DNA of 63,889 nucleotides, filler included, from a bacterium (GTDB taxonomy: Bacteria; JAMOTN01): NCBI GenBank assembly GCA_027062325.1. It is 3 parts of 3 records of this genome, joined end to end, with 100 filler letters (N's around TTAATTAATTAA, not from the genome) between each part and the next. Parts side by side here need not be neighbours in the genome. Positions count along the whole stretch, not along the records: positions 25,383 to 48,669 come from JAMOTN010000064.1; 2 more parts are not named here. The stretch is one strand, 5' to 3'. Positions 2,920-63,889 of the stretch are shown in pieces (positions within the stretch are counted from its first letter, which is position 1; every line of letters starts with the position of its first letter). Below the pieces are notes generated by a model that saw only the letters and a list, made by a program, of their open reading frames with translations, did not search any database and was not told where the DNA came from. The translations under genes were made by a program, and so were the position numbers.

Positions 2920-3918
2920 ATGGATAGAGTTAGTGAATTTGAATGGTTGATGTTTCTTATTAAAGGTATTGCAAGAAGACCAATTTGGGCTTTGCTTGCC
3001 TTTACATTGATAAGTTTGTTTGTATGGAAGTTTACTTCTGTTAACCTTTATGACCTATATATGGATCTTCAGGAGAAAAAAATTTATAGAGATGTAGAAG
3101 AAACAGGTGGATGTTTTGAGCATAAGATTTACGTTTGGGGTGAGACTCTTGATTCGTTAGATGCTACTTCTGATCTTTGGAAGGTGGAAAGTGTTAATGG
3201 AGATAAAAATGATGAAAAGAAAGGGAAAAGTGAAGGATTTAAAGTAAAACATCTTAAAATAGTTTCTTATCTATTAAGGAAAGTGGTGGATGCTTCTTTT
3301 GAAGTTCATCCCTTTTTAATTTCTGGTGATTTATTCGATTATTTTAATCCCTTGGAAGAAAAATTACTCAATTTTAGAATGTGGGTTTATAAGGTTGAAG
3401 GTGGTTTTGTTTGGGAGCTGAGAATAGAGCCTGTAATGGAAAGATATGTAGCTACTTATACACCGAATTCAAAGATTTTATTGGTGCCTATACTTATTCC
3501 TTCAGCTGTTTTAAAAGATATGAGAAAAATAGATTTATTGAATTTTAAAATAGCGATAAGTTATTTAGAAAGTGTAAAAAGTTTAAAGGGGGAAGTTTTT
3601 AAGAAGAATCCAGTGGATATAAAGAAACTTGAAAAAGTGAAAAGTAGAGTGTTAAGGTTTATAGCTAAGAAGAGAAAGGATTTAAAAAGTTTTTACGATG
3701 ATTTACCTGATATAAAGTGCAGTTTTGAAATTGATGAGCGTGTTTACAGAAAAGAGGATATTGAAATGGATCATTTTATTTATAGTTGGGTTGGTCTTAT
3801 AGGAATTGGAATTTTGGTTGGTTTGGCATTGGTTTATGAGAGGGAGGAAAGAAAAAAGAGAGAAAAAATGGAGACTGAAAGTAAGATGGGAAAGGAAGAA
3901 AACGATACTATTGCTTAA
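2920..3918 (+). CDS. hypothetical membrane protein (N- and C-terminal TM helices)
   Basis: 332 aa ORF with two terminal hydrophobic segments; no family recognised. Confidence 0.75.
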   Translation: MDRVSEFEWLMFLIKGIARRPIWALLAFTLISLFVWKFTSVNLYDLYMDLQEKKIYRDVEETGGCFEHKIYVWGETLDSLDATSDLWKVESVNGDKNDEKKGKSEGFKVKHLKIVSYLLRKVVDASFEVHPFLISGDLFDYFNPLEEKLLNFRMWVYKVEGGFVWELRIEPVMERYVATYTPNSKILLVPILIPSAVLKDMRKIDLLNFKIAISYLESVKSLKGEVFKKNPVDIKKLEKVKSRVLRFIAKKRKDLKSFYDDLPDIKCSFEIDERVYRKEDIEMDHFIYSWVGLIGIGILVGLALVYEREERKKREKMETESKMGKEENDTIA

Positions 3919-3982: not shown

Positions 3983-4885
3983 TTGAGAGTTAGGATAAGT
4001 TGCTTTTTTAAAACCTTGCGAGGCAATTTAGGGTATATCATAGGGGTTGCTGTTTTAACTTTATTTGTAATTGGAATGATGGAATTTTTCAGAATTACAA
4101 TGGTTCTTCCTCTTAATGTCAAAAAAGGAGTAGTTTTTTCGTGGAACGGCACTGTTGTGGAGAAGGTGCCGTTTGAATACTTGAATCAGCCAGAAAGTCT
4201 CTTAAAAGTGCCTTTTTCCAAGTTATACAAGTATACTTACTACGATCTCAAAATTTTTAAGCGTTCTCTTGTGAAAAATGGATTTTCTGATGTTAAAATT
4301 ACAGCTTTGTTTTTACAGAATCCCCAGTTTGCAAGTGTTTGTATTCCTGTTTTGCGATATAAATTAGAGATGAATATTTCGATTATTGATTTGAATAAAA
4401 AATATCCGCCTCTTTTAGATATAGATGTAGAAGATTTAGGAGAATTTTTGAGTTTTGCTGCTAGTAAAGAGTTTGTAGTTCCCATATTTTTATTTGGAGA
4501 ATTTACTGCTATACAGGCAGATTATTTTACTATAAGTTTTTTGGAAGAAAATGCTGAAGTTTTGGTGGAATTGTTTAGGAGTTTGAATCCTGAGTATTCG
4601 AAAAAGAGAAATGTTGAATCGATAAAAAAATATTTGGTTTACGCCTCAAAAAAGGTAAAGAACTATATTCGTAGAAAAAGGTTGCTACATAAGTTGTATA
4701 GAAAAGACATAGACTCAATACGTTACAGGATAAATATAGAAAGAAAAAATTACAGTTGGGTTTTCAAACACAACAAACTTCTAAATTTATTTGAAATGAT
4801 AATTGTTTTAGGAGTTGTTATAGTAATTGTTATATATATTTTAAAATTTTGTAAAAATGGAGAAAATAATAATTATTACTCCTAA
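3983..4885 (+). CDS. hypothetical membrane protein, probable paralog of 2920-3918
   Basis: 300 aa ORF with the same topology and collinear shared motifs. Confidence 0.72.
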   Translation: MRVRISCFFKTLRGNLGYIIGVAVLTLFVIGMMEFFRITMVLPLNVKKGVVFSWNGTVVEKVPFEYLNQPESLLKVPFSKLYKYTYYDLKIFKRSLVKNGFSDVKITALFLQNPQFASVCIPVLRYKLEMNISIIDLNKKYPPLLDIDVEDLGEFLSFAASKEFVVPIFLFGEFTAIQADYFTISFLEENAEVLVELFRSLNPEYSKKRNVESIKKYLVYASKKVKNYIRRKRLLHKLYRKDIDSIRYRINIERKNYSWVFKHNKLLNLFEMIIVLGVVIVIVIYILKFCKNGENNNYYS

Positions 4886-6389: not shown

Positions 6390-7046
6390 TTACAAACTCT
6401 TATAGCAGAACCACCAATCGTAGCATTCGTGTTTACCTGCTTTTGCATCGTCCATGCGCTTTTTAGCGTCTTCCTCACTGGTTGCCGGTGGAACGATTAC
6501 TTTATCACCCATGAGTTCGTTTTCCGGCCAGTTCGCTGGAATAGCGACTCCATTTTCATCCGAAACCTGCAATCCTTTAACTGCTCTTAAAATTTCTTTC
6601 ATATTGCGACCTAACTCCTGCGGATAGTAGATCATTGCGCGAATTATTCCCTTAGGATCAACAATAAATACTGCGCGTACAGTATTAGTGCCTTTTGCTT
6701 GATGGATTAAACCAAGTTGCTTTGAAACATTGCCGAGGTCATCAGCTATTATTGGAAATTTGATCTCTTCTCCAATTTTTTCTTTTATCCATTCTACCCA
6801 TTTTATGTGAGAGAACACCTGGTCAATAGAAAGGCCAATTAATTCACAATTGAGTTTTTTAAAATCTTCATAATGCTTGTTGAATGATACAAATTCTGTG
6901 GTGCAAACTGGTGTAAAATCAGCTGGGTGGCTAAACAGCACAAACCACTTTCCCTTATAATCATCTGGTAATTTTTTAACCCCGTGAGTGGTCAACACTT
7001 CCAATTCAGGAAATTTTTCACCAAGTAAAGGAATTCTCATCTCCAT
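6390..7046 (-). CDS. peroxiredoxin (Prx6/archaeal type)
   Basis: [15 protein letters not shown]-terminal CYDWWFCYK; start moved to MEMRIP after SD AGGAGGGG. Confidence 0.95.
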
Positions 7047-7068
7047 ATAAATCCCCTCCTTTTTGAAG

Positions 7069-7473
7069 TTATTTTTTATTTTCATAAGTATTTTTCCACA
7101 ATCCATGCTTATTACAGTAAGAACGAATAACGGCTTTGTTGGTTTCTACTCTGAATTCTGCGACAGGTTCTTCACCTGGCTTCAGAAAATAACGTGCCTG
7201 CGTCGGAATTCCATCTTCAGCTATGATTTCAATCCACTCTATAAAGTGATCATCAGACATCGGGTGAGACTCTTTTTTACCTACAGAAATTGTAAATTTT
7301 CTACACTTTTTTTCAATTGAGGGGACATGTTTTTCTGTATTTGGATCTGCTGTTTTCGGTTCCAGTTTTTTCATCGGTTGACCACAACAGTGAATTTCAG
7401 ATCCACCACCTTTTATTATTTCAACGATATTACCACACTTCTCGCACAAGTAAACTTCAAAACGCTCTGGCAT
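7069..7473 (-). CDS. dfx: desulfoferrodoxin (2Fe superoxide reductase)
   Basis: [34 protein letters not shown]. Confidence 0.95.
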
Positions 7474-9544: not shown

Positions 9545-9590
9545 TTCAGGGCTAGATTTGCATACGCATTACTTCCCGATACGCTTCTAA
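9545..9590. repeat. left arm of 46-bp perfect inverted repeat (fliE 3' end including stop); partner 9974-10019
   Basis: TTCAGGGCTAGATTTGCATACGCATTACTTCCCGATACGCTTCTAA is the exact reverse complement of 9974-10019. Confidence 0.97.
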
Positions 9591-9788
9591 AATAGCTTCT
9601 TTCAAACGCGTCACTGTTTCCACAGCAAGAGATGCCTTTTGGGTAGCCACGGTGAGTTCGTGTATGGAGGCTTTTCCCTTTACAAAATCACGTTCAACTT
9701 TAGTAGCTTGTTTTTGGAGTGAATCAGCCCAGTTTATGCTTTTTGAGATGTTAGAAAAAATAAAACGGGAATTGTTAACTACCCCCAT
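9552..9788 (-). CDS. fliE: flagellar hook-basal body protein FliE
   Basis: IHELTVATQKASLA and LEAYREVMRMQI C-terminus; start at MGVVNN after AGGGGG. Confidence 0.9.
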   Translation of the reverse strand: MGVVNNSRFIFSNISKSINWADSLQKQATKVERDFVKGKASIHELTVATQKASLAVETVTRLKEAILEAYREVMRMQI

Positions 9789-9842
9789 TTTTGGCCCCCC
9801 TATGGTGAAACGGTCGATTTGCAAAGAAGTAAATTTTAAAAG

Positions 9843-9916
9843 CGCCCCTGGGAGGACTCGAACCTCCGACACGTGGATTAGGAATCCACTGCTCTATCCG
9901 CCTGAGCTACAGGGGC
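9843..9916 (-). tRNA. tRNA-Arg (CCT), CCA not encoded
   Basis: GCCCCTG/CAGGGGC stem; GTGGA-TTCCTAA-TCCAC; GTTCGAGTC. Confidence 0.96.
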
Positions 9917-9934
9917 GCGTACTTCTCTAATAAA

Positions 9935-9963
9935 ATCTTACATTAAGTTTTTTGGGGCTTCAA
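9935..9963 (-). promoter_or_regulatory. sigma70-type promoter for tRNA-Arg/fliE/TPR gene
   Basis: TTGAAG-N17-TAAGAT (TG in spacer end), 18 bp upstream of the tRNA. Confidence 0.6.
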
Positions 9964-9973
9964 GGGTAAGTTA

Positions 9974-10019
9974 TTAGAAGCGTATCGGGAAGTAATGCGT
10001 ATGCAAATCTAGCCCTGAA
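9974..10019. repeat. right arm of 46-bp inverted repeat (intergenic copy of the fliE 3' end)
   Basis: TTAGAAGCGTATCGGGAAGTAATGCGTATGCAAATCTAGCCCTGAA, which reads LEAYREVMRMQI* on the + strand. Confidence 0.97.
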
Positions 10020-25282: not shown

Positions 25283-25382
25283 NNNNNNNNNNNNNNNNNN
25301 NNNNNNNNNNNNNNNNNNNNNNNNNNTTAATTAATTAANNNNNNNNNNNNNNNNNNNNNNNNNNNNNNNNNNNNNNNNNNNN
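25283..25382. other. assembly linker (contig junction)
   Basis: N runs flanking TTAATTAATTAA (25327-25338). Confidence 0.99.
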
Positions 25383-29162: not shown

Positions 29163-29511
29163 CTTTTAATCCACTACTCCCCTTCTTTCCAAGAGAAGAA
29201 AGCACTCTTTCTATCTTAGAGGGAATATCACTTTCTGAAATCAAATCTATCCAACTTTTAGCTTCTTTAACCCTTATGAATCGAACATCATTGCCACTAA
29301 CTACCAGAAAACCAACCGGTTCCACACTAACAACTCCTCCACTTCCTCCCACCTCTGGATCCCCTTTGCCGCCAACAGCATAGCTAAAACTCACCTTACT
29401 CACGGGGATCACAGACACACTTCCTATCACAATCTCTTCCCCTATAACCAGATTTGCTTTTGCCGTTTCTGTAAGCTGCTCAAACAAAGCTATTAGTGTT
29501 TTTTCTATCAT
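29122..29511 (-). CDS. YtfJ/GerW family protein
   Basis: VIGEEI, IPVSKVSF, GGSGG.VSVEPVGFLVV. Confidence 0.88.
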   Translation of the reverse strand: MIEKTLIALFEQLTETAKANLVIGEEIVIGSVSVIPVSKVSFSYAVGGKGDPEVGGSGGVVSVEPVGFLVVSGNDVRFIRVKEAKSWIDLISESDIPSKIERVLSSLGKKGSSGLKGGEGKSTNIEEEG

Positions 29512-29529
29512 GCATAACCACCATCCGGG

Positions 29530-29955
29530 TTATTTATCTTCTGAAGAATTATTTTTTTCATCCTCCTTAGGAGTCTCAGAAGAGTCCTGCTCTGAAACTA
29601 CTTTTTCAACAACAGGTTCTCCTTTCTCCGTATTCTCTACACTTTGAGAAAGAGCCTCCATTTTCCTCTTCAAATCTTCTATCATTCTCTCTATATCATC
29701 TAGGTCTTTCACATACAATTGAGCTTTCTCTTCAAAGTCTGCTCTTTTATTCTTGCTGTATTCATAATACAACTGTCCCAACATAGCAAACTTTGCTTCC
29801 CTCTCTTTCTCCAATTCAGCAATTCTAAGCTTAATCTTTCCTATTTCCGTCAAACGCTTGGCCTCCTCTGTAGCCTTCTCTGTAAACTTAACTGTTGCGT
29901 CTTTTGCTTTATTTGCAAAATCTTTCACTTTTTCAAATACGTTTTTAAAATCCAT
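29530..29955 (-). CDS. helical/coiled-coil hypothetical protein
   Basis: 141 aa ORF with good SD; amphipathic N-terminus, LGQLYYE, acidic tail. Confidence 0.75.
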   Translation of the reverse strand: MDFKNVFEKVKDFANKAKDATVKFTEKATEEAKRLTEIGKIKLRIAELEKEREAKFAMLGQLYYEYSKNKRADFEEKAQLYVKDLDDIERMIEDLKRKMEALSQSVENTEKGEPVVEKVVSEQDSSETPKEDEKNNSSEDK

Positions 29956-30016
29956 AAATTATCCCCCCTTTTTACATACAGTAATATATTAACCTAAAAA
30001 ATTACATTAGTAAATT

Positions 30017-30045
30017 AAAAGGGCAAGCTCTAACGAGCTTGCCCT
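30017..30045 (-). terminator. intrinsic terminator after flgMN
   Basis: 11-bp stem AGGGCAAGCTC/GAGCTTGCCCT followed by TTTAATTT on the - strand. Confidence 0.85.
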
Positions 30046-30056
30046 ATATTTTCATA

Positions 30057-30101
30057 GTGGATGGGAATCCTGCGAAACTCGTAGGAATCAACAGTGTCAA
30101 A
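30057..30101. repeat. left arm of 45-bp perfect inverted repeat (copy of internal lpxA sequence, overlapping the flgN stop); partner 31244-31288
   Basis: GTGGATGGGAATCCTGCGAAACTCGTAGGAATCAACAGTGTCAAA is the reverse complement of 31244-31288; extends 7 more bp past one mismatch. Confidence 0.97.
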
Positions 30102-30546
30102 GTGATAATTCTAAACGTCCATAATTTCCCAACAACTCCTTCATTCTCTCAAGACGCGCAATCTTTCCTCTCAAAACTCTTTTGAATATCCTAATTTTTT
30201 CCACTACCTCAACGCTAACCCTGCTGAGCTCTTCCTCAAACTCAAAAAAACCACTCTCTTTCAAAACACTTTCTTTATCCAAAGTACTGCCTTCAATACG
30301 CTCCTTCATCGCTTGAATTGAATTTCTCAAATAGATATAGTAGTTTCCCCACAATTTTTCAAACTGCATCAACCTCTCGGCATAACTTTCCCAATTTCCC
30401 TCTTCTACAGCCTTTTCTACATCAGCAAAAGCAGCCTTCAACTCACCCAAAGCCTCTCTTAAATCATTCACCTGTTTTCTTACTTCAAGAAGCACCTCAC
30501 TCATACTATACACCTCTACGAACCTCCACAAGGCTTTCATGAGCAA
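30097..30546 (-). CDS. putative FlgN-like flagellar chaperone
   Basis: All-helical 149 aa immediately downstream of flgM; assignment mainly by synteny. Confidence 0.55.
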   Translation of the reverse strand: MLMKALWRFVEVYSMSEVLLEVRKQVNDLREALGELKAAFADVEKAVEEGNWESYAERLMQFEKLWGNYYIYLRNSIQAMKERIEGSTLDKESVLKESGFFEFEEELSRVSVEVVEKIRIFKRVLRGKIARLERMKELLGNYGRLELSL

Positions 30547-30551
30547 CTAAC

Positions 30552-30926
30552 TTAGAAGGACATCAATCTGTCAATCACTCCATCCTCTATCAATTTATCC
30601 GCCAACTTATCAAGATCTATTTTGTACTCTCCACTTTCCAACATTTTCTTAATTTTTTCCACTTTTTGCTCATTTATATCCATGGTATTTTTTACAACAT
30701 CAGCTGCTCTTCTCATCAAACGTATTTTTCTGACAGAATCAGCATTCTGCCCCATTAACCCTCGAGCACTTATCAAATCTGAAACGGATGCCTTCTTCCC
30801 TAAGCCTTCAGCCTTGGAAGTATCTACATCCTTACCTTTCCTCTCCAACCTCTTCTTTTCATCAATTTTGGTGTCAACGCGCCTGTATCCTCCACCTGAT
30901 CCAACTCTTCCTATTCCCCCCATCAT
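30552..30926 (-). CDS. flgM: anti-sigma28 factor FlgM
   Basis: C-terminal EQKVEKIKKMLESGEYKIDLDKLADKLI. Confidence 0.88.
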   Translation of the reverse strand: MMGGIGRVGSGGGYRRVDTKIDEKKRLERKGKDVDTSKAEGLGKKASVSDLISARGLMGQNADSVRKIRLMRRAADVVKNTMDINEQKVEKIKKMLESGEYKIDLDKLADKLIEDGVIDRLMSF

Positions 30927-31066
30927 AGCAACCACCCTCTTTTTTCATCGGGTTCTCTCCTGAATCTCATTTCTCTCCCCCCTTATTTTTTCGTAATATT
31001 TCATCAGTTTTTTAATAGGGGCCAGCTGCCTTTTAAAAATTAGACAACATCTTCAACATTACTTTC

Positions 31067-31843
31067 TCACCTCATAGGCTTTACATCATCCCACTTCTCA
31101 AAAAACTCTACAAAAATCTCCCCTATTCTACCCCAACTTTTTACCTCCTTAAGAACCTCAGCCAACTTAGGTTTTTCTCTGTATAGCTTATATACTTTTT
31201 TCGCCAGATCTATCTCTTCTTTTAAGAATCCACACCGATTGAGTTTGACACTGTTGATTCCTACGAGTTTCGCAGGATTCCCATCCACCATGAAAAAAGG
31301 AGGAACATCCATAGTAATTTTGCTCATTCCACCAACCATGGCATATTTCCCAATTTTTCTAAACTGATGTACTCCAGCCTTTCCAGCTATAACTGCATAA
31401 TCATCCACAATAACATGTCCTGCTAACATGGCTGCCTGAGACATTATAACTTCATTTCCTATAATGCAGTTGTGGGCTATATGAACATGTCCCATTAATA
31501 GATTTCTATTCCCAATTATTGTTTTTTCTCCTTCACCAGTCGCAACATGAATGGTTACAAACTCTCTTATTACATTTTCATCTCCTATTACAACGCAGCT
31601 TTCTTCTCCTTTATACTTTAAATCTTGGGAATCTTCTCCAATAATTGCATAGGGGTATATCTTGTTGCTTTTCCCTATAACTGTGTTTTTTCTAATGATG
31701 ACTCCTTGCATAATTTCTGTATCTTTCCCTACTTTAACCTCTGGACCTATGTAAGCAAACCTTCCAACTTTAACTCCGTCGTCTAATTCAGCCCTCTTAT
31801 CTACATAAGCAGTTTTATCAATATAAACTGCCATTCCTACCAC
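31067..31843 (-). CDS. lpxA: UDP-GlcNAc acyltransferase
   Basis: Hexapeptide repeats, QDLKYKGE, IREFVTIH, HIAHNC, VHQF, DVPPF. Confidence 0.95.
   Translation of the reverse strand: MVGMAVYIDKTAYVDKRAELDDGVKVGRFAYIGPEVKVGKDTEIMQGVIIRKNTVIGKSNKIYPYAIIGEDSQDLKYKGEESCVVIGDENVIREFVTIHVATGEGEKTIIGNRNLLMGHVHIAHNCIIGNEVIMSQAAMLAGHVIVDDYAVIAGKAGVHQFRKIGKYAMVGGMSKITMDVPPFFMVDGNPAKLVGINSVKLNRCGFLKEEIDLAKKVYKLYREKPKLAEVLKEVKSWGRIGEIFVEFFEKWDDVKPMR
31244..31288. repeat. right arm of 45-bp inverted repeat (inside lpxA, codons VDGNPAKLVGINSVK)
   Basis: Exact reverse complement of 30057-30101. Confidence 0.97.
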
Positions 31844-31849
31844 CTCATA

Positions 31850-33193
31850 TTAGTTGCAGACCTGCAGTTTTTTGAACTCATCTGCTAAAAGGGAGAATGT
31901 AAACTCTCCTTCTGTAACAACTTCTGCATTGACATAGGCCGTTCCCTTAACTTTGCAAATTCTTGCCTTTTTCATCAACAATTCAACTTCCATAATCAAA
32001 GTATCCCCCGGTTTTACAGGCTTCTTAAAACGAACTTTATCGATTGCTGCAAAAAATGGGGTAATATTCTTCAAATTAAAACTCTTCAAAACAAGCACAC
32101 CAGCACTTTGAGCCAATGCTTCCACTATCAAAACCCCAGGCATTACAGCCCTATGTGGAAAATGTCCTGTAAAAAACGCTTCGTTGCCTGTAACATTCTT
32201 TAGTGTGACAATCTTCTTACCTTCTTCAAAGTCAAGAACTCGATCCACAAGCAAAAATGGATAACGATGTGGCAGCAACTCTTTTATCTCCTCAAAATTC
32301 ATACGCCTCACACACCTCTTTGCCAACCATTTTACTTTTTTAGCAAGAGCAACGTTATACTTATGACCACTTCTTTCCAACAGCCATTTTCCATCTAATT
32401 TGACACCTGCTAAAGATATATCCCCTAAAAAGTCCAAAATTTTGTGACGTACAAACTCATTTTCCCATCGCAGAGAATCTTTAACAACTATCCCGTCCTC
32501 CTTAACAAGGATAGCATTATCTAAACTTGCTCCTTTTATTAACCCCTTCTTCTTCAAAAAACCCAGCTCTTTTTCAAATCCAAAAGTCCTGGCTGGGGCT
32601 ATATCTCTCTTGAAATTCTGCCAGGTTAAATTAAATTTAAAGGTTTGAATTCCTATAGGTGTTCCCCTATAATCCAGCAAAAAACTCACTTCAAAACCAG
32701 GAGAAGGGACATAAGTTGCTTTTACTCTTTTTGATTCATCTTCCACTGATAATGGTGTCAGAAAATACCCTTCACCCTCCACCTTCTCCGCGATAAATTC
32801 TTCTATTCCAACATTGTCAATAGCTTCAGCCATTACTCTAGCACTTCCATCAAAAATCGGAAACTCTTCACCGCGCACAAACTCAATTACAGCACTATTA
32901 ATTCCTGCTGCAAACAGAACAGCCATCAAATGCTCAACGGTATCTATCCTCTCTCCCTCCGAATGCAATGAAGTACCTCTAAAAACGTCAACTACATTAT
33001 CTACATCAGCTTTTATATAAACTCCATTTTTGAGAAACCTTATTTCACCACTTTCATCAGGGTGAATTATCACCCGTGCCTCTTCTCCAGTGTGCATTCC
33101 AATTCCTTCAAATTCAATTTTATCCTTTACAGTTCTAAAAATGCCCTTCCAAAACCTTTTCTTTACATCAAATGGCATATCTTTCACAAGCAT
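31850..33193 (-). CDS. lpxC-fabZ: fused LpxC deacetylase / FabZ dehydratase
   Basis: [29 protein letters not shown], then [27 protein letters not shown] in one frame. Confidence 0.94.
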
Positions 33194-33206
33194 CTCCTCC
33201 AATGAC

Positions 33207-33821
33207 CTAATCAAAGTAAAAGATAAATCCAAAACGCAAGTAGTCCTTATCGTAGTAATCATCTATCTTTACATACTCTAGCTTAATATCCAAACCGTAA
33301 ACAGCTGAAAAATCCAAACCATAATACTTTGTTCCACCTTTACCAAAGTTGACATAAAATTTAACAGTCGGAAAAGGCTCCCATTCAAGTCCACCCATTA
33401 CTCCATAGTCAATCTTATAAACTCGTGAATCCCCAAAGTCAAAGTACTGTTTTCCAACTCCTAACAACATATTAAAAGACTGATCAGTATAAAATTTAAT
33501 AAAAGCTCTGGAAGATTTGTCAGAAAACTGACCTAGTAAATCGAAACTATCAGAGAGAAAATACCTGAAGTTAAAACCAGCGTTCCCTTTATCTTTAGAT
33601 ACAACAAATGCTCTGAGAGTAAAAGTGTCCGTTGACTTTAAAAGAATAGACATTCCCTTCTCGTAGTTTTCTTCATTCTCTGCATCAAATCCCAAGTAAA
33701 AATCCACCCTAGATTCTCCAACCTGGGGAACAACACCATATACATAAGATAAATTGTGAGAATAAACTACAAAATTAGTAAAAAAACACAATAATGCTAA
33801 CACAATTCCCCATTTAAACAC
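33207..33821 (-). CDS. small putative outer-membrane beta-barrel protein
   Basis: Signal peptide; aromatic/Gly alternating strands; ends [10 protein letters not shown]; sits between lpxD and lpxC. Confidence 0.65.
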
Positions 33822-33862
33822 TAAATTGCCCCCCTTTTCAAACCTCCTCTTATAAATCCCTT

Positions 33863-34951
33863 TTATAAATAATCAGCTTGAGCCAATTCTTTTAAAATTT
33901 TAAACAACTCTGGAAGCTTTTCTAGGACTTTCTGAATTCTCAAAAATTTCATATGAGGAATCGCAGGATACCCAGAAACCGTCTGACCTGCTGGAACATT
34001 ATTTATAACTCCACCTTTAGCTGTAACTGTAACATCATCCCCAATTTCAATATGCCCAGAAACACCACTTTGCCCTGCTAACTTAACTCTGTTTCCAATC
34101 TTAGTACTCCCTGCTATCCCAACTTGAGCCACAATTAAGCACTCATGACCAATTTTTACATTATGGCCAACGTGTACCAAATTATCTATTTTGGTCCCCT
34201 TCCCAATAACAGTATCGCCAAAAGTTCCTCTATCTACCGTGACATTTGCCCCAATTTCTACATCATCTTCTATTACAACTCTACCCCGTTGTGGTATTTT
34301 GTAAAAGCCATCCTCTGCTCTTGTATAACCGTATCCATCAGAGCCTATAACTGTTCCTGAATGAATGATCACTCGATTTCCTATTTTTGAAAATTCGCGA
34401 AGAGTTACATTAGGATAAATTACACAATCTTCTCCGATCTCTACTCCAACTCCTATATAAACATGTGGATATATAATTGTTCCCCTTCCAATCTTTACTC
34501 CACTTTCAATAACTGCAAAATCCCCAATTCGGACATCTTCTCCGATCTCTACATTAGAAGCTATCTTGGCATTTGAGGAAATATCTTTAACTGGATGCTC
34601 AAAAGGATAGAAATGCTCTAACAACTTAGCAAAAGCCAAATCTGCATTCTTGACAACTACGAAAGCACGGGCAACATCTTTTAATGAACCATTGTTTTTT
34701 TCTATATCTGACCACGTTCGTTCCGAAACTATCAAAGCCCCGACTTTTCTACCGTTATCCTTAATTTTTCTCACAACAGAAAGGTCTCTTGCAAAAATCA
34801 CACTCTCCTCATCTGCATTTTCGATAACATCAACTTTAGATAAAACAACATCTTTTTCGCCTACCAAATTTAAAGCTTCAACAATCTCCTGCACTTTAGA
34901 TAAAGTGATAACTTCTCTTGGTTTCCCCTTCAAATCAAACACTTCACACAC
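33863..34951 (-). CDS. lpxD: UDP-3-O-acylglucosamine N-acyltransferase
   Basis: [38 protein letters not shown]. Confidence 0.96.
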
Positions 34952-35018
34952 CCCTTAAAGCAAATGTATGCCACATCTTTTATTTCAACTATTATTTTCG
35001 GAAGTTTACAACATCATA

Positions 35019-35546
35019 TTACTTCATTACTTTTCCAACATATTTACTGTTCAAAAGTTTTATCAAATCATCAGTAACATCAATTCCACCAAATACCACA
35101 ACTCTTCTATCGAATATGGCAGCCAATCCCTTTTGCTTGGCAAGCTCTTCTGCAGCTTTTATTATTACATCTTCAAGTTTCTTTTCATAATTTCTTCTCA
35201 TTTGATCAAGCTGGGCATACATGCTGTCCCTCATCTGCTGAAGCTGCATTAATCTCTGATATAACTCATCCTCCTTCTTCTTCTTCTCATCCTTACTGAG
35301 CTTTTTATCATTTGCCCAACTATCTCTCCACTTCATAATTTTATCCTGCTCTTGTTTTAGTTGATCTTTAATAGCATTTTCCTTATCTTTCAAATAACTT
35401 ATTACCTTCTGAGTATCCGTATAACTCTGGAAAACTTTGTTAAGCTCAGCATACCCAAACTTAAAACCACCTTTCTTCCCAGCAAATGAAACAAAAGCAA
35501 ACAACACAGCCACTAACAAAACCATCGTCTTCTTCATACTAACCAA
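35019..35546 (-). CDS. skp: OmpH/Skp chaperone
   Basis: Signal peptide, coiled coil, VFGGIDVTDDLIK; lies between bamA and lpxD. Confidence 0.88.
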   Translation of the reverse strand: MVSMKKTMVLLVAVLFAFVSFAGKKGGFKFGYAELNKVFQSYTDTQKVISYLKDKENAIKDQLKQEQDKIMKWRDSWANDKKLSKDEKKKKEDELYQRLMQLQQMRDSMYAQLDQMRRNYEKKLEDVIIKAAEELAKQKGLAAIFDRRVVVFGGIDVTDDLIKLLNSKYVGKVMK

Positions 35547-35552
35547 CCTCCT

Positions 35553-37247
35553 TTAAAACGCATTTCCAAGATTAAAATATGTTCTTGTTTCCCCTTGAGC
35601 CCTTCCTACCTCAAAACGCACCATCCCAATAGGCGTCTTTACTCTTAATCCAAATCCACGCCCTGCCTTAATATCACTATCAGTATCCCACGCATCAGCC
35701 AAATCGTAGAATAGCACAAATTCAAAATTTTTGGCAAACCTCCACCTCAATTCTGAATTGTAAACTAAAGTTCTCTTTCCATTATAAGAGTATTCTTTAT
35801 AACCTCTCAACGTATTAGCACCACCAACATAGAACTTTTCATAAACTGGTATCTCCCCTTCAACCAGAGATATGAATCCATATCGCAATCTCTGGGCTAA
35901 AATGACCTTACTCTTATAGACATCTCGATAGTACTTAAAATCCCAGAAAAATTTTCTGAAACCGTTATCACCTTTCAAAAAATCTCCAGTAAACGTAACG
36001 GTAAATCCCAAACTATATCCCTTTGAAGGCAAAAGCACACTATTAACTGTTCTTCTCAAGAAATCAAGCGACAATCTTTGAACTTCTTCATTATTTGTTG
36101 CCTTATCTCCAAGTTGAGCTATCAACTCATCTGCATCTTCAAGTTCAACCTTTTCATCCGTAAACCTCCATCCAAAATTCCAAGCTCCTTTAAATATTGG
36201 CTTACCAAAATATATGCTGTACCCCCTCCTTTTCTCATCATACTCCAACTTTTCATTCGCATCCGTATAGTAGTCCTTCTTAACTTTGGTGTTATAAAGC
36301 GAAAAGTCAAGTGTTCTCTTTTTCCCCATAAACCAATTATCCGTATAGGAAAACTCATAAGATTTATACCCACCAAATTCAGCTTGAACATAAACACGTT
36401 TCCCCAAACCTCTAAAATTAGTGTCCTCCACCTTGACATAACCTGAAACACCAGTAGCAGAAGAATAACCAACACCAAAAATGGTCACTCCTGTTTTCTC
36501 TTCCTTCACCCTTATCTTTAGCTTAACTTTATTTCCATAAGTAGGTAATATCTGTGGCTCAACCTCTGAAAAATAGCCCAAATCGTAAATCCTCCATAAA
36601 TCTTTTCTAAGCTGTTTCAAATCACAAACGGATCCAGGTCTAAGCTTCATTTCTCTGAGTAAGACAGTTTTCTTGGTTTTTTTCAATCCCTCAAACTCTA
36701 TGCTATCTATGATTATCGGATCAATTAAAACTGCAATCACATCTTTCTCTAAAGGCTTCATTTCAACATTGACCAAAACTCCCTTCTTCTCTTTATACCA
36801 TGAAGCAATAGAGTTAAAAACGCGTTTTAACTCAGCCACATTCAATACTTTTCCCTCAAACCCTTTTATCTTTTTTCTCAAGTCATCTGGTAACTTTCCT
36901 AATTTATCCTTTATAACTACTTTCGCAATTCGGGGATTTTCCCTAACCTCTATTATCAATTTAGATTTTATCTTGCTAACCTTCTTCACACTAACTTCAA
37001 CATAGGAGAACAAACCACTCTGCACTAACTTCTTCTTCACATCTTGAACCGTCAAATAAGTAAGCATATCTCCCTTTTTCAAACCAAGCAGGGACAGAAG
37101 CTTTTCCTTGGGCATAGATTTTAAACCTTTAACTTCAACTGAATCTATTATGCTAACAAAACCCGCAGCCCAAACTCTAGAAGTAAGAAGAAAGGTCACT
37201 AACAACACCAACACCAAATTTGCTCTCCATATTCTCCTCATTTTCAT
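35553..37247 (-). CDS. bamA: compact BamA/Omp85 outer-membrane assembly factor
   Basis: About three POTRA-like units, DTNFRGLG, GGANTLRGY, TPIGMVRFE, C-terminal FNLGNAF. Confidence 0.9.
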   Translation of the reverse strand: MKMRRIWRANLVLVLLVTFLLTSRVWAAGFVSIIDSVEVKGLKSMPKEKLLSLLGLKKGDMLTYLTVQDVKKKLVQSGLFSYVEVSVKKVSKIKSKLIIEVRENPRIAKVVIKDKLGKLPDDLRKKIKGFEGKVLNVAELKRVFNSIASWYKEKKGVLVNVEMKPLEKDVIAVLIDPIIIDSIEFEGLKKTKKTVLLREMKLRPGSVCDLKQLRKDLWRIYDLGYFSEVEPQILPTYGNKVKLKIRVKEEKTGVTIFGVGYSSATGVSGYVKVEDTNFRGLGKRVYVQAEFGGYKSYEFSYTDNWFMGKKRTLDFSLYNTKVKKDYYTDANEKLEYDEKRRGYSIYFGKPIFKGAWNFGWRFTDEKVELEDADELIAQLGDKATNNEEVQRLSLDFLRRTVNSVLLPSKGYSLGFTVTFTGDFLKGDNGFRKFFWDFKYYRDVYKSKVILAQRLRYGFISLVEGEIPVYEKFYVGGANTLRGYKEYSYNGKRTLVYNSELRWRFAKNFEFVLFYDLADAWDTDSDIKAGRGFGLRVKTPIGMVRFEVGRAQGETRTYFNLGNAF

Positions 37248-48669: not shown

Positions 48670-48769
48670 NNNNNNNNNNNNNNNNNNNNNNNNNNNNNNN
48701 NNNNNNNNNNNNNTTAATTAATTAANNNNNNNNNNNNNNNNNNNNNNNNNNNNNNNNNNNNNNNNNNNN
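48670..48769. other. assembly linker (contig junction)
   Basis: N runs flanking TTAATTAATTAA (48714-48725). Confidence 0.99.
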
Positions 48770-62187: not shown

Positions 62188-63889
62188 TTATCCTCCTCCA
62201 AGAAGCTGAAGAACCATCTGTGGCCTTTGATTAGCCTGGGCAAGAATTGCCGTCCCCGCCTGTGATAGGATTTGTTCCTTAGTCATCTCTGCAGTTGCCT
62301 CAACGAAGTCTGTATCTCTAATACGGCTTTCTGCTGCTTGTAAGTTCTCATAAGCGTTCCTTAAGTAGTCAATTCTCTTTTGCAATCGGTTCATTAATGC
62401 ACCCAACTTACTTCTCTCTTCCGACACTGTAGCTATAGCTTTATCAAGCTTTCCTATTACTTCTTCAGCAGAAGCAGAGGACAATACATTCAAATCATCT
62501 ATCCCAAGAGCTTTAGCCCTCATATCACCTATCGACAACTCCAACACCTGATCCTGATTAGGTCCAACGTGCAACTGGAAGCGTGACTTACTACCTACGT
62601 AAAGCTCACCCTTTTCGGTATCAATTATTATCTTTCCATCTTGTCCTGTTGCATTCGCATTATTTATACTGAACACCAAATCGTCAAACGGCACACCATC
62701 GGCGTTTACTCTGACCATTACACCATCTGCTGTTACCTGAAGAGCATTTGTAGGATCGGATTCATCCCATATACTTACCACAGCATTTGAACCGTAATCT
62801 GTTGCATTAGCTGTAGAACCACTGGTATCCGACATATAAAGTTTTAAATACTGAGCAGATCCATAATCAGTTCTTCTTACAACAACACTGTTAGCATGGT
62901 AACTTGCCTCAATCCCAAGAGAACCGTACATGGACGTTACGTATTGGGCCACACTCTGCGCTGTCATTCCACTAAGTACAAATACAGCCGAGCCTTTATT
63001 GGTAATAAGACTTAGCTTTACTCCTTCTGTATTTGTAACTTCAATTCCAACAACTGAAGCCCTTCCAGCACTATGCAAGAGTGCCCAACCATAACTTCCT
63101 TCTTGCGTTCCTACACCAACACTCTTAAGATCAAAGCTTACACCTGTTGCTCCACTTTTTACCCATTTTACAATACTTGTTGTCGCATCTAACTCAAGTC
63201 TTATTCCATCAAACGGTTGATTTGGAGAGTCTACTACTAAGTAATTCCCATCAGCCTCAAATATTCCATTTACCCCAGCACTTGTAAGCGAGGAGAGTTT
63301 AACCAGTGCATCGGCCCCATAAGCTGATAAAGTATCTCCCACCTGCGACACAGCAAAACCAAAAGCCTTACTATCATTATCAGTAGCAGAAATCACTATT
63401 CTCGCATCCTCTCCATACTCATCGCCATATAGATATAATCTGTTGTTACTTGCCTTTGCAATAACTCCAACATCCAACGCATTTATCTTCTCTGCCAAAT
63501 CATGAGCACTCTCTCCACTTTCCTTATGTATCAAGTAACCATTTATTTTTATGCTAGCCTCAACACTTATGTTTACTGAACTGTCAGCCCCTATAAATGC
63601 TTTTTCTGCCGCTCTCATTATCTCAACGTGGTAACGCCCAGCCTGAGTATTATCGCTCTTTCCTATAAACTTAATCAACTCATTTGTACTCGTAAGTTTT
63701 GCTCCACCAAGAGAACCATCCAAAAGTTTCTTTGTATTAAACTCAGTAGTATTGGCAATTTTATCAACTTCATCTATCAACTGATTAATTTCGTCTTGAA
63801 TAGCTTTTCTGTCATCTAGAGTGTTTGTGTCATTAGCTGCTTGAATGGATAGCTCTCTTATACGCCTTAAAATCTCATGAAGCTGCCCC
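62188..63889 (-). CDS. fliC: large flagellin, 5' end outside the window
   Basis: TEFNTKKLLDG, HVGPNQDQ, RSKLGALMNRL, AESRIRDTD, ILAQANQ.PQ.VLQLL. Confidence 0.95.
   Translation of the reverse strand, partial: GQLHEILRRIRELSIQAANDTNTLDDRKAIQDEINQLIDEVDKIANTTEFNTKKLLDGSLGGAKLTSTNELIKFIGKSDNTQAGRYHVEIMRAAEKAFIGADSSVNISVEASIKINGYLIHKESGESAHDLAEKINALDVGVIAKASNNRLYLYGDEYGEDARIVISATDNDSKAFGFAVSQVGDTLSAYGADALVKLSSLTSAGVNGIFEADGNYLVVDSPNQPFDGIRLELDATTSIVKWVKSGATGVSFDLKSVGVGTQEGSYGWALLHSAGRASVVGIEVTNTEGVKLSLITNKGSAVFVLSGMTAQSVAQYVTSMYGSLGIEASYHANSVVVRRTDYGSAQYLKLYMSDTSGSTANATDYGSNAVVSIWDESDPTNALQVTADGVMVRVNADGVPFDDLVFSINNANATGQDGKIIIDTEKGELYVGSKSRFQLHVGPNQDQVLELSIGDMRAKALGIDDLNVLSSASAEEVIGKLDKAIATVSEERSKLGALMNRLQKRIDYLRNAYENLQAAESRIRDTDFVEATAEMTKEQILSQAGTAILAQANQRPQMVLQLLGGG

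Follow-up and report, generated by a model that had tools for sequence, protein, structure and literature searches.

The window analysed here, a stretch of 63,889 nt from an uncultured hydrothermal-vent bacterium (GenBank assembly GCA_027062325.1; GTDB lineage Bacteria, JAMOTN01), consists of three metagenome contigs of one bin with G+C contents of 36.8%, 36.9% and 38.5%. They are joined at positions 25283-25382 and 48670-48769 by linkers of 100 nt of N with a central TTAATTAATTAA, and genes on either side of a linker are not physically linked. On the minus strand of the middle contig (25383-48669), genes for the outer membrane and lipid A run in the order bamA-like, ompH-like, lpxD, an open reading frame (ORF) of 204 aa, a fused lpxC-fabZ and lpxA, and are followed by flgM, a helical ORF of 135-149 aa that we call FlgN-like, and a terminator. 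The subject of this study is a long, almost perfect inverted repeat, lying well within this contig, that has one arm inside lpxA and the other at the end of the FlgN-like ORF.

The two arms (30049-30101 and 31244-31296) measure 53 nt each, lie 1142 nt apart and are complementary at 52 of 53 positions (98%). Their sole mismatch, at 30056, leaves an exact core of 45 nt, in which 30057-30101 is the reverse complement of 31244-31288. This core has two matches in the window and none in any of 100 dinucleotide shuffles, and at this window size and composition about 3e-17 exact inverted pairs of 45 nt are expected; the repeat is far beyond chance. Translated on its plus strand, the downstream copy yields VDGNPAKLVGINSVK, which corresponds to LpxA residues 186-200 (with 58 residues remaining after them in the protein), and then VIILNVHNFPTTPSFSQDAQSFLSKLF, a run of 27 unrelated residues ending in a stop codon. 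Repeat search, shuffles and translation thus bear out the claim of the first-pass annotation that the 3′ end of the flgMN transcript carries a 45-nt exact, or 52-of-53, antisense match to lpxA codons. The further claim that this arm lies between the flgN-like stop and the terminator holds for 48 of its 53 bases, which belong to the 3′ untranslated region (UTR); the stop codon itself (30097-30099) and two bases of the last sense codon are inside the arm. The two arms have different flanking bases. The inner junction is ambiguous by 1 nt only, and the TTTTCAT heptamer past the mismatch may have been copied or may have pre-existed.

For comparison with other bacteria, we used 80 loci kept from at least 590 confirmed lpxA loci (from at least 600 pattern matches in a contig scan with LpxA), in which LpxA identity reaches 50-51% at best, together with a protein database search that gave 2139 LpxA matches at E<=1e-40 among 2593 candidates, the best of them other than the protein itself being P0005, with 57% identity. 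The lpxA arm corresponds to a conserved stretch of LpxA that could be aligned in all 80 related loci (consensus ADGNPAKLRGLNLVG) and likewise in P0005, the nearest relative. Because it encodes conserved LpxA residues, the copy in lpxA is, judged by this alignment, the original one, and the derived arm is that behind the FlgN-like gene. When exactly 30049-30101 is omitted from the sequence, the FlgN-like ORF keeps its end (...YGRLELSL) and stops at 30046-30044; its stop codon then coincides in part with the start of the terminator stem, and the gene end so formed is compact and complete. The 53 nt thus have the look of a clean insertion by which the ORF acquired a stop codon two bases in. As a separate observation, LpxA residue 200, encoded by the last codon of the lpxA arm (31244-31246), is Lys here, at a position where Gly is the commonest residue in the 80 related loci (97%) and is also found in P0005; this is either a lineage-specific change or a hint of sequence exchange between the arms in both directions.

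The derived arm was checked independently in Logan contigs (k=31) of a sequencing run, X1, that is possibly the source sample. These contigs are interrupted solely where the 45-mer begins and ends, and they pass through both junctions of the derived arm at the same depth as in the flanks: 29500-30086 lies in a unitig of 4666 nt (depth 8.77) that enters the repeat by 30 nt, 30072-30943 lies in one of 872 nt (depth 8.71), and the unitig of the 45-mer has a depth of 12. No branch for an allele without the insert is assembled in the X1 contigs. A 151-nt contig from a run of another study (X2, 2025) spans 30079-30229 with one difference and hence includes the point where the arm meets the FlgN-like gene. 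In the population sampled, the insertion is fixed. A metagenome scan with the FlgN-like protein gave 335 pattern matches and a single confirmed locus (L081), which is the window's own middle contig (100% over 15,122 nt) and so not independent; X1 may be its source. In a different part of the locus, contigs of X1 and of a further run, X6, match 30898-30943 at the 5′ end of flgM with two differences and then continue with related but different upstream sequence (region 30898-30973), and because of this divergent continuation a diverged relative or strain is indicated to co-occur in these vent samples.

A second inverted pair lies on a different contig of the bin. Its arms (9545-9590 and 9974-10019) are 46 nt long, perfectly complementary and 383 nt apart, and the derived one, which translates to the orphan LEAYREVMRMQI followed by a stop codon, is located beyond the likely tRNA-Arg promoter and upstream of a divergent Mg-chelatase-like gene. 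We see no antisense role for this copy, and nothing suggests that it is co-transcribed antisense to fliE. The fliE gene itself stands apart from other flagellar genes and encodes only 78 aa from the first internal Met. In a self-BLAST of the window, these two inverted pairs are the only ones, neither is decayed, and no cross match reveals a motif shared between them. Across the 613,474 nt of the 80 lpxA loci, exact inverted repeats of at least 40 nt occur in one locus only, so that two such pairs within 64 kb point to a DNA-level process specific to this lineage. That one locus (L074, from a Geobacteraceae metagenome-assembled genome) carries a 252-nt intergenic inverted repeat (94%; 3047-3298 and 6929-7180) enclosing a 3.6-kb segment with lpxA (match at 4001-4750) and neighbouring ORFs; this repeat is not a gene fragment and is of a different kind, yet it also brackets lpxA. 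The features of both repeats and their surroundings are compiled in the table.

Table. Coordinates of the two inverted repeats and of the features around them, counted along the whole window.
Feature	Position	Strand or placement	Evidence
Derived arm, reverse-complement copy of lpxA coding segment	30049..30101	between last sense codon of FlgN-like ORF and terminator	repeat search, exact match, translation
Native arm in lpxA, source of the copy; spans the codons of residues 186-200 and 8 nt upstream of them	31244..31296	-	conserved-segment alignment
lpxA, acyl-ACP--UDP-GlcNAc O-acyltransferase, 258 aa, intact in present orientation	31067..31843	-	Pfam Hexapep, Acetyltransf_11; NCBIfam PRK05289, 313.9 bits vs cut-off 226
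flgM, anti-sigma-28 factor, 127 aa	30552..30935	-	PF04316, E 5.5e-12; TIGR03824, 43.1 bits vs cut-off 40.75
FlgN-like orphan ORF, helical, 135-149 aa by start choice; stop codon from inserted arm	30097..30546	-	position only
Intrinsic terminator, 11-bp stem, 7 G-C pairs, loop of 4, U-rich tail	30020..30045	-	terminator scan and folds; 3 nt past the arm
Second repeat, native arm, last 12 fliE codons plus stop plus 7 nt	9545..9590	-	FliE PF02049, E 1.2e-16, matched to profile end
Second repeat, derived arm, perfect 46-nt reverse-complement copy of fliE 3′ end, intergenic	9974..10019	+	repeat search, self-BLAST
Enclosed 383-nt segment: tRNA-Arg(CCT) 9842-9916 and fliE body (9552-9788)	9591..9973	-	tRNA and Pfam scans

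Taken together, our observations favour, at a probability of roughly 55%, a real and recent templated insertion of reverse-complement sequence whose consequences for RNA and DNA are incidental. A template switch or fold-back repair event would have copied 53 nt of lpxA (31244-31296) from the opposite strand and placed the copy in inverted orientation 1.2 kb away, directly after the last sense codon of the FlgN-like ORF and ahead of the terminator. The same process may also have made the 46-nt copy of the fliE 3′ end, and templated copying of about 50 nt from the opposite strand would account for both repeats; as the second of them has no RNA logic, the common factor would lie at the level of DNA. 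The resulting antisense tract, stem and potential for inversion would then be neutral or mildly costly, rather than parts of an evolved regulator or switch. Template switching is described as making perfect reverse-complement repeats in one event (PMC8794818), and templated inverted insertions at breaks are described for yeast (PMC11724301).

Two other origins were considered and rejected. A single inversion with staggered cuts would fit the fliE pair and was dismissed for the lpxA pair by reasoning, because it implies an ancestor whose lpxA was broken or split. A mobile element with terminal inverted repeats, of the insertion sequence or MITE (miniature inverted-repeat transposable element) type, does not agree with one arm being conserved lpxA coding sequence and with the differing flanking bases; a Pfam scan of 61 ORFs in the window found no transposase families.

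Several points weigh against the preferred origin. The distances between copy and source, 0.4 and 1.2 kb, are long for template switches, and no convincing microhomology was seen when the junction sequences were read. The state before the insertion is reconstructed from one sequence (the closest LpxA being 57% identical), and a stop codon right after the junction has a chance probability of about 1 in 20, which is supportive and could be coincidence. Both repeats are perfect or nearly so and neither has decayed, which fits maintenance by selection or recurrent recombination as well, and both enclosed segments hold flagellar genes (fliE in one, flgM and the FlgN-like gene in the other), which a random process does not predict. 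Moreover, the insert occupies a slot typical of small RNAs derived from 3′ UTRs and is fixed in the population. Finally, the support from reads covers the lpxA pair, the second pair being known from contig assembly alone.

The strongest competitor to a templated insertion without function, one that we consider unlikely, is functional antisense coupling. The flgMN 3′ UTR, or a processed small RNA sharing its terminator, would pair with lpxA mRNA, or the 53-bp stem would direct cleavage by a double-strand RNase, and either way would tie lipid A synthesis to the late-stage control of flagella. From the sequence, the 3′ ends of flgMN mRNAs carry 48 nt antisense to lpxA mRNA, and this tract lies between the stop codon and the strong intrinsic terminator of the mRNA. 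When the 3′ UTR is folded alone, the tract is predicted to be mostly unpaired and the terminator is kept (z -4.5). The start of flgM lies 131 nt past the lpxA stop codon, and the terminator scan predicts no terminator between the two genes. In a fold of 1316 nt of the minus strand (31320-30005), the 53-bp long-range stem appears directly before the terminator hairpin in both the minimum free energy and the centroid structure, so that the stem looping out flgMN in read-through mRNA, which had been proposed before, is indeed predicted; for this duplex, energies of about -98, -67 and -40 kcal/mol were computed at 37, 60 and 80 °C, respectively. Given this stem, its energy and the accessible 3′ UTR, these models make it physically plausible that the tract pairs with lpxA mRNA, either in cis or in trans, and in a read-through transcript the 53-bp duplex would be a substrate for double-strand RNases. 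X1 shows the insert as fixed, and the run of the other study has it too; in E. coli and C. jejuni, flagellar operons are known to give rise to small RNAs from their UTRs (PMC10578931, PMC11187230). Against functional coupling, however, the near-perfect match of 53 nt marks a recent copy and not an evolved seed, the second repeat of the bin lacks a comparable RNA geometry, Rfam finds nothing in the window other than seven tRNAs, and the sequencing runs matched to this stretch include no RNA run. We find no support beyond the geometry of the locus for the coupling of motility to lipid A synthesis that the first-pass annotation had raised.

Upstream of flgM, a promoter scan of the minus strand detected no sigma-70-like promoter. 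A CCGAT-containing stretch before the gene resembles, by eye, the -10 element of a sigma-28 promoter, without a convincing -35 element.

Even less probable, and in our judgement doubtful, is an invertible segment. Here, recurrent inversion (homologous or enzyme-mediated) of the 1142 nt with the lpxA 3′ end, flgM and the FlgN-like gene would give rise to a subpopulation with a truncated LpxA and with flgMN pointing antisense into the lpx operon, and the fliE/tRNA-Arg segment would be a second cassette. A stretch of 45-46 bp of identity suffices for low-frequency homologous recombination, and the 45 bp shared by the arms would allow rare homologous inversion that truncates LpxA. As had been stated earlier, recombination between the arms, carried out in silico, swaps the last 58 residues of LpxA, and what replaces them is 27 unrelated residues, antisense to the FlgN-like gene, with the loss of most of the Acetyltransf_11 domain (residues 179-248). 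The layout, with one arm in coding sequence and the other outside, is that of the 'partial intergenic' or gene-altering inversions (10.1101/2023.03.11.532203, PMC9881135); there are two repeat pairs in the window, neither decayed and both around flagellar genes; and some invertible regions have no nearby recombinase (PMC9881135). A homologous alternative module, in contrast, is a usual mark of gene-altering inversions (PMC9881135, 10.1101/2023.03.11.532203). BLASTP of the 27-aa alternative tail against the 58-aa native tail gave no alignment at E<=100, and thus no homologous module of the shufflon type, and LpxA in the inverted form is probably inactive. Furthermore, none of the 61 ORFs scanned with Pfam in the 64-kb window belongs to a recombinase family, and the two repeat pairs share no motif. 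As for the orientation in the sample, the window and the Logan contigs fit a single one, under the limit that with an exact repeat of 45 nt and k=31 both orientations give the same graph.

Weakest of all, a chimeric join behind the FlgN-like gene, made during assembly or library preparation, is extremely improbable: the window does consist of binned metagenome contigs and the sole other assembly found is of the same contig, but, as the unitigs at full local depth over both junctions without an alternative branch and the junction in a run of a different study and year attest, the arm is not the chimera that the earlier annotation had named as a possible refutation, and chimeric reads would be rare and non-clonal.

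The name 'flgN' given to the ORF after flgM is supported by that position and not by profiles, since no FlgN (PF05130) match above the cut-off was obtained for it in Pfam or NCBIfam; Atlas feature matches of 0.84 (protein language model) to clusters of the FlgN/FliT type serve as a lead only. In sets of 5.8 billion and 1.84 billion proteins, the FlgN-like protein retrieved only itself, phmmer found no homologues among the 1.84 billion representatives, and the searches of protein sets with FlgM returned the window's own protein only. At tblastn thresholds of E<=1e-3, FlgM, the FlgN-like protein, a 141-aa protein and YtfJ had matches in 0 of the 80 distant lpxA loci; LpxC/FabZ had matches in 74 of them, and no locus stands out as close. 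In this genome, flgM and the orphan FlgN-like ORF close a string of outer-membrane and lipid A genes (30097-37247), and no FlgM match was found by tblastn downstream of lpxA in the 80 distant loci. A flagellin gene (Flagellin_C, E 1e-26) is present at 62188-63780 on the third contig, and the organism appears to be flagellated, with its flagellar genes scattered in the window (fliE at 9552-9788, flgM at 30552-30935 and flagellin at 62188-63780). On the plus strand, six tRNA genes (Gly, Arg, His, Lys, Gly and Asn) are clustered at 803-1390.

If the derived arm is only a scar, it represents a clean, unusually long and long-range templated reverse-complement insertion in a bacterium, and its two occurrences in 64 kb hint at a lineage-specific habit of repair or replication. 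If, however, the antisense tract is used, the locus would have been caught in the act of a one-step origin of a trans- or cis-acting antisense RNA from its own target, and it would be an unexpected link from the operon of the flagellar anti-sigma factor to the first reaction in lipid A synthesis. In its most far-reaching form, which we regard as a rather speculative proposition with the odds well against it, a bacterial antisense regulator would here be born through an inverted micro-duplication of the gene that it targets: by templated insertion, the 3′ UTR of the anti-sigma-28 operon would have acquired a 53-nt lpxA antisense that couples the output of the flagellar checkpoint and lipid A synthesis via cleavage of double-stranded RNA, and a process writing reverse-complement copies of about 50 nt around flagellar genes in this lineage (fliE being the second case) would supply the raw material for regulators or inversion switches.

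A conceptual analogy to such a birth is offered by plant microRNA genes, which are born by inverted duplication of fragments of their target genes. There, too, the inverted copy provides extended perfect complementarity at the moment of origin; the analogy ends with the domain of life and the machinery, both of which differ, and with the structure, since here a single arm would act in trans or in cis and there is no fold-back precursor. Another comparison is with the group of 3′-UTR-derived small RNAs (UhpU, MotR, FliX and FlgO of E. coli and CJnc230 of C. jejuni), which likewise come from the 3′ end of a flagellar mRNA and share its terminator (PMC10578931, PMC11187230), the RNA considered here being a potential one. 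These flagellar small RNAs use short imperfect seeds and were shown by experiment, whereas the tract described here has 53 nt with one mismatch, would target a lipid A gene of its own operon and is known from sequence alone.

With gene-altering programmed inversions and partial intergenic invertons (Milman et al. 2023; Chanin et al. 2023), the locus shares the layout of the arms and the recoding of a C-terminus upon inversion. Unlike those, it has no homologous module and no recombinase among the 61 ORFs, and its flipped form would probably inactivate LpxA. There is also a likeness to template-switch and fold-back systems, in which nearby sequence is likewise written as a reverse-complement copy that leaves a repeat capable of forming a stem (PMC8794818). 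The cases described mostly comprise a few to some tens of bases at short range, whereas here 46-53 nt were apparently copied from 0.4-1.2 kb away, in an uncultured bacterium and, in one of the two instances, as a copy antisense to a gene of an essential pathway.

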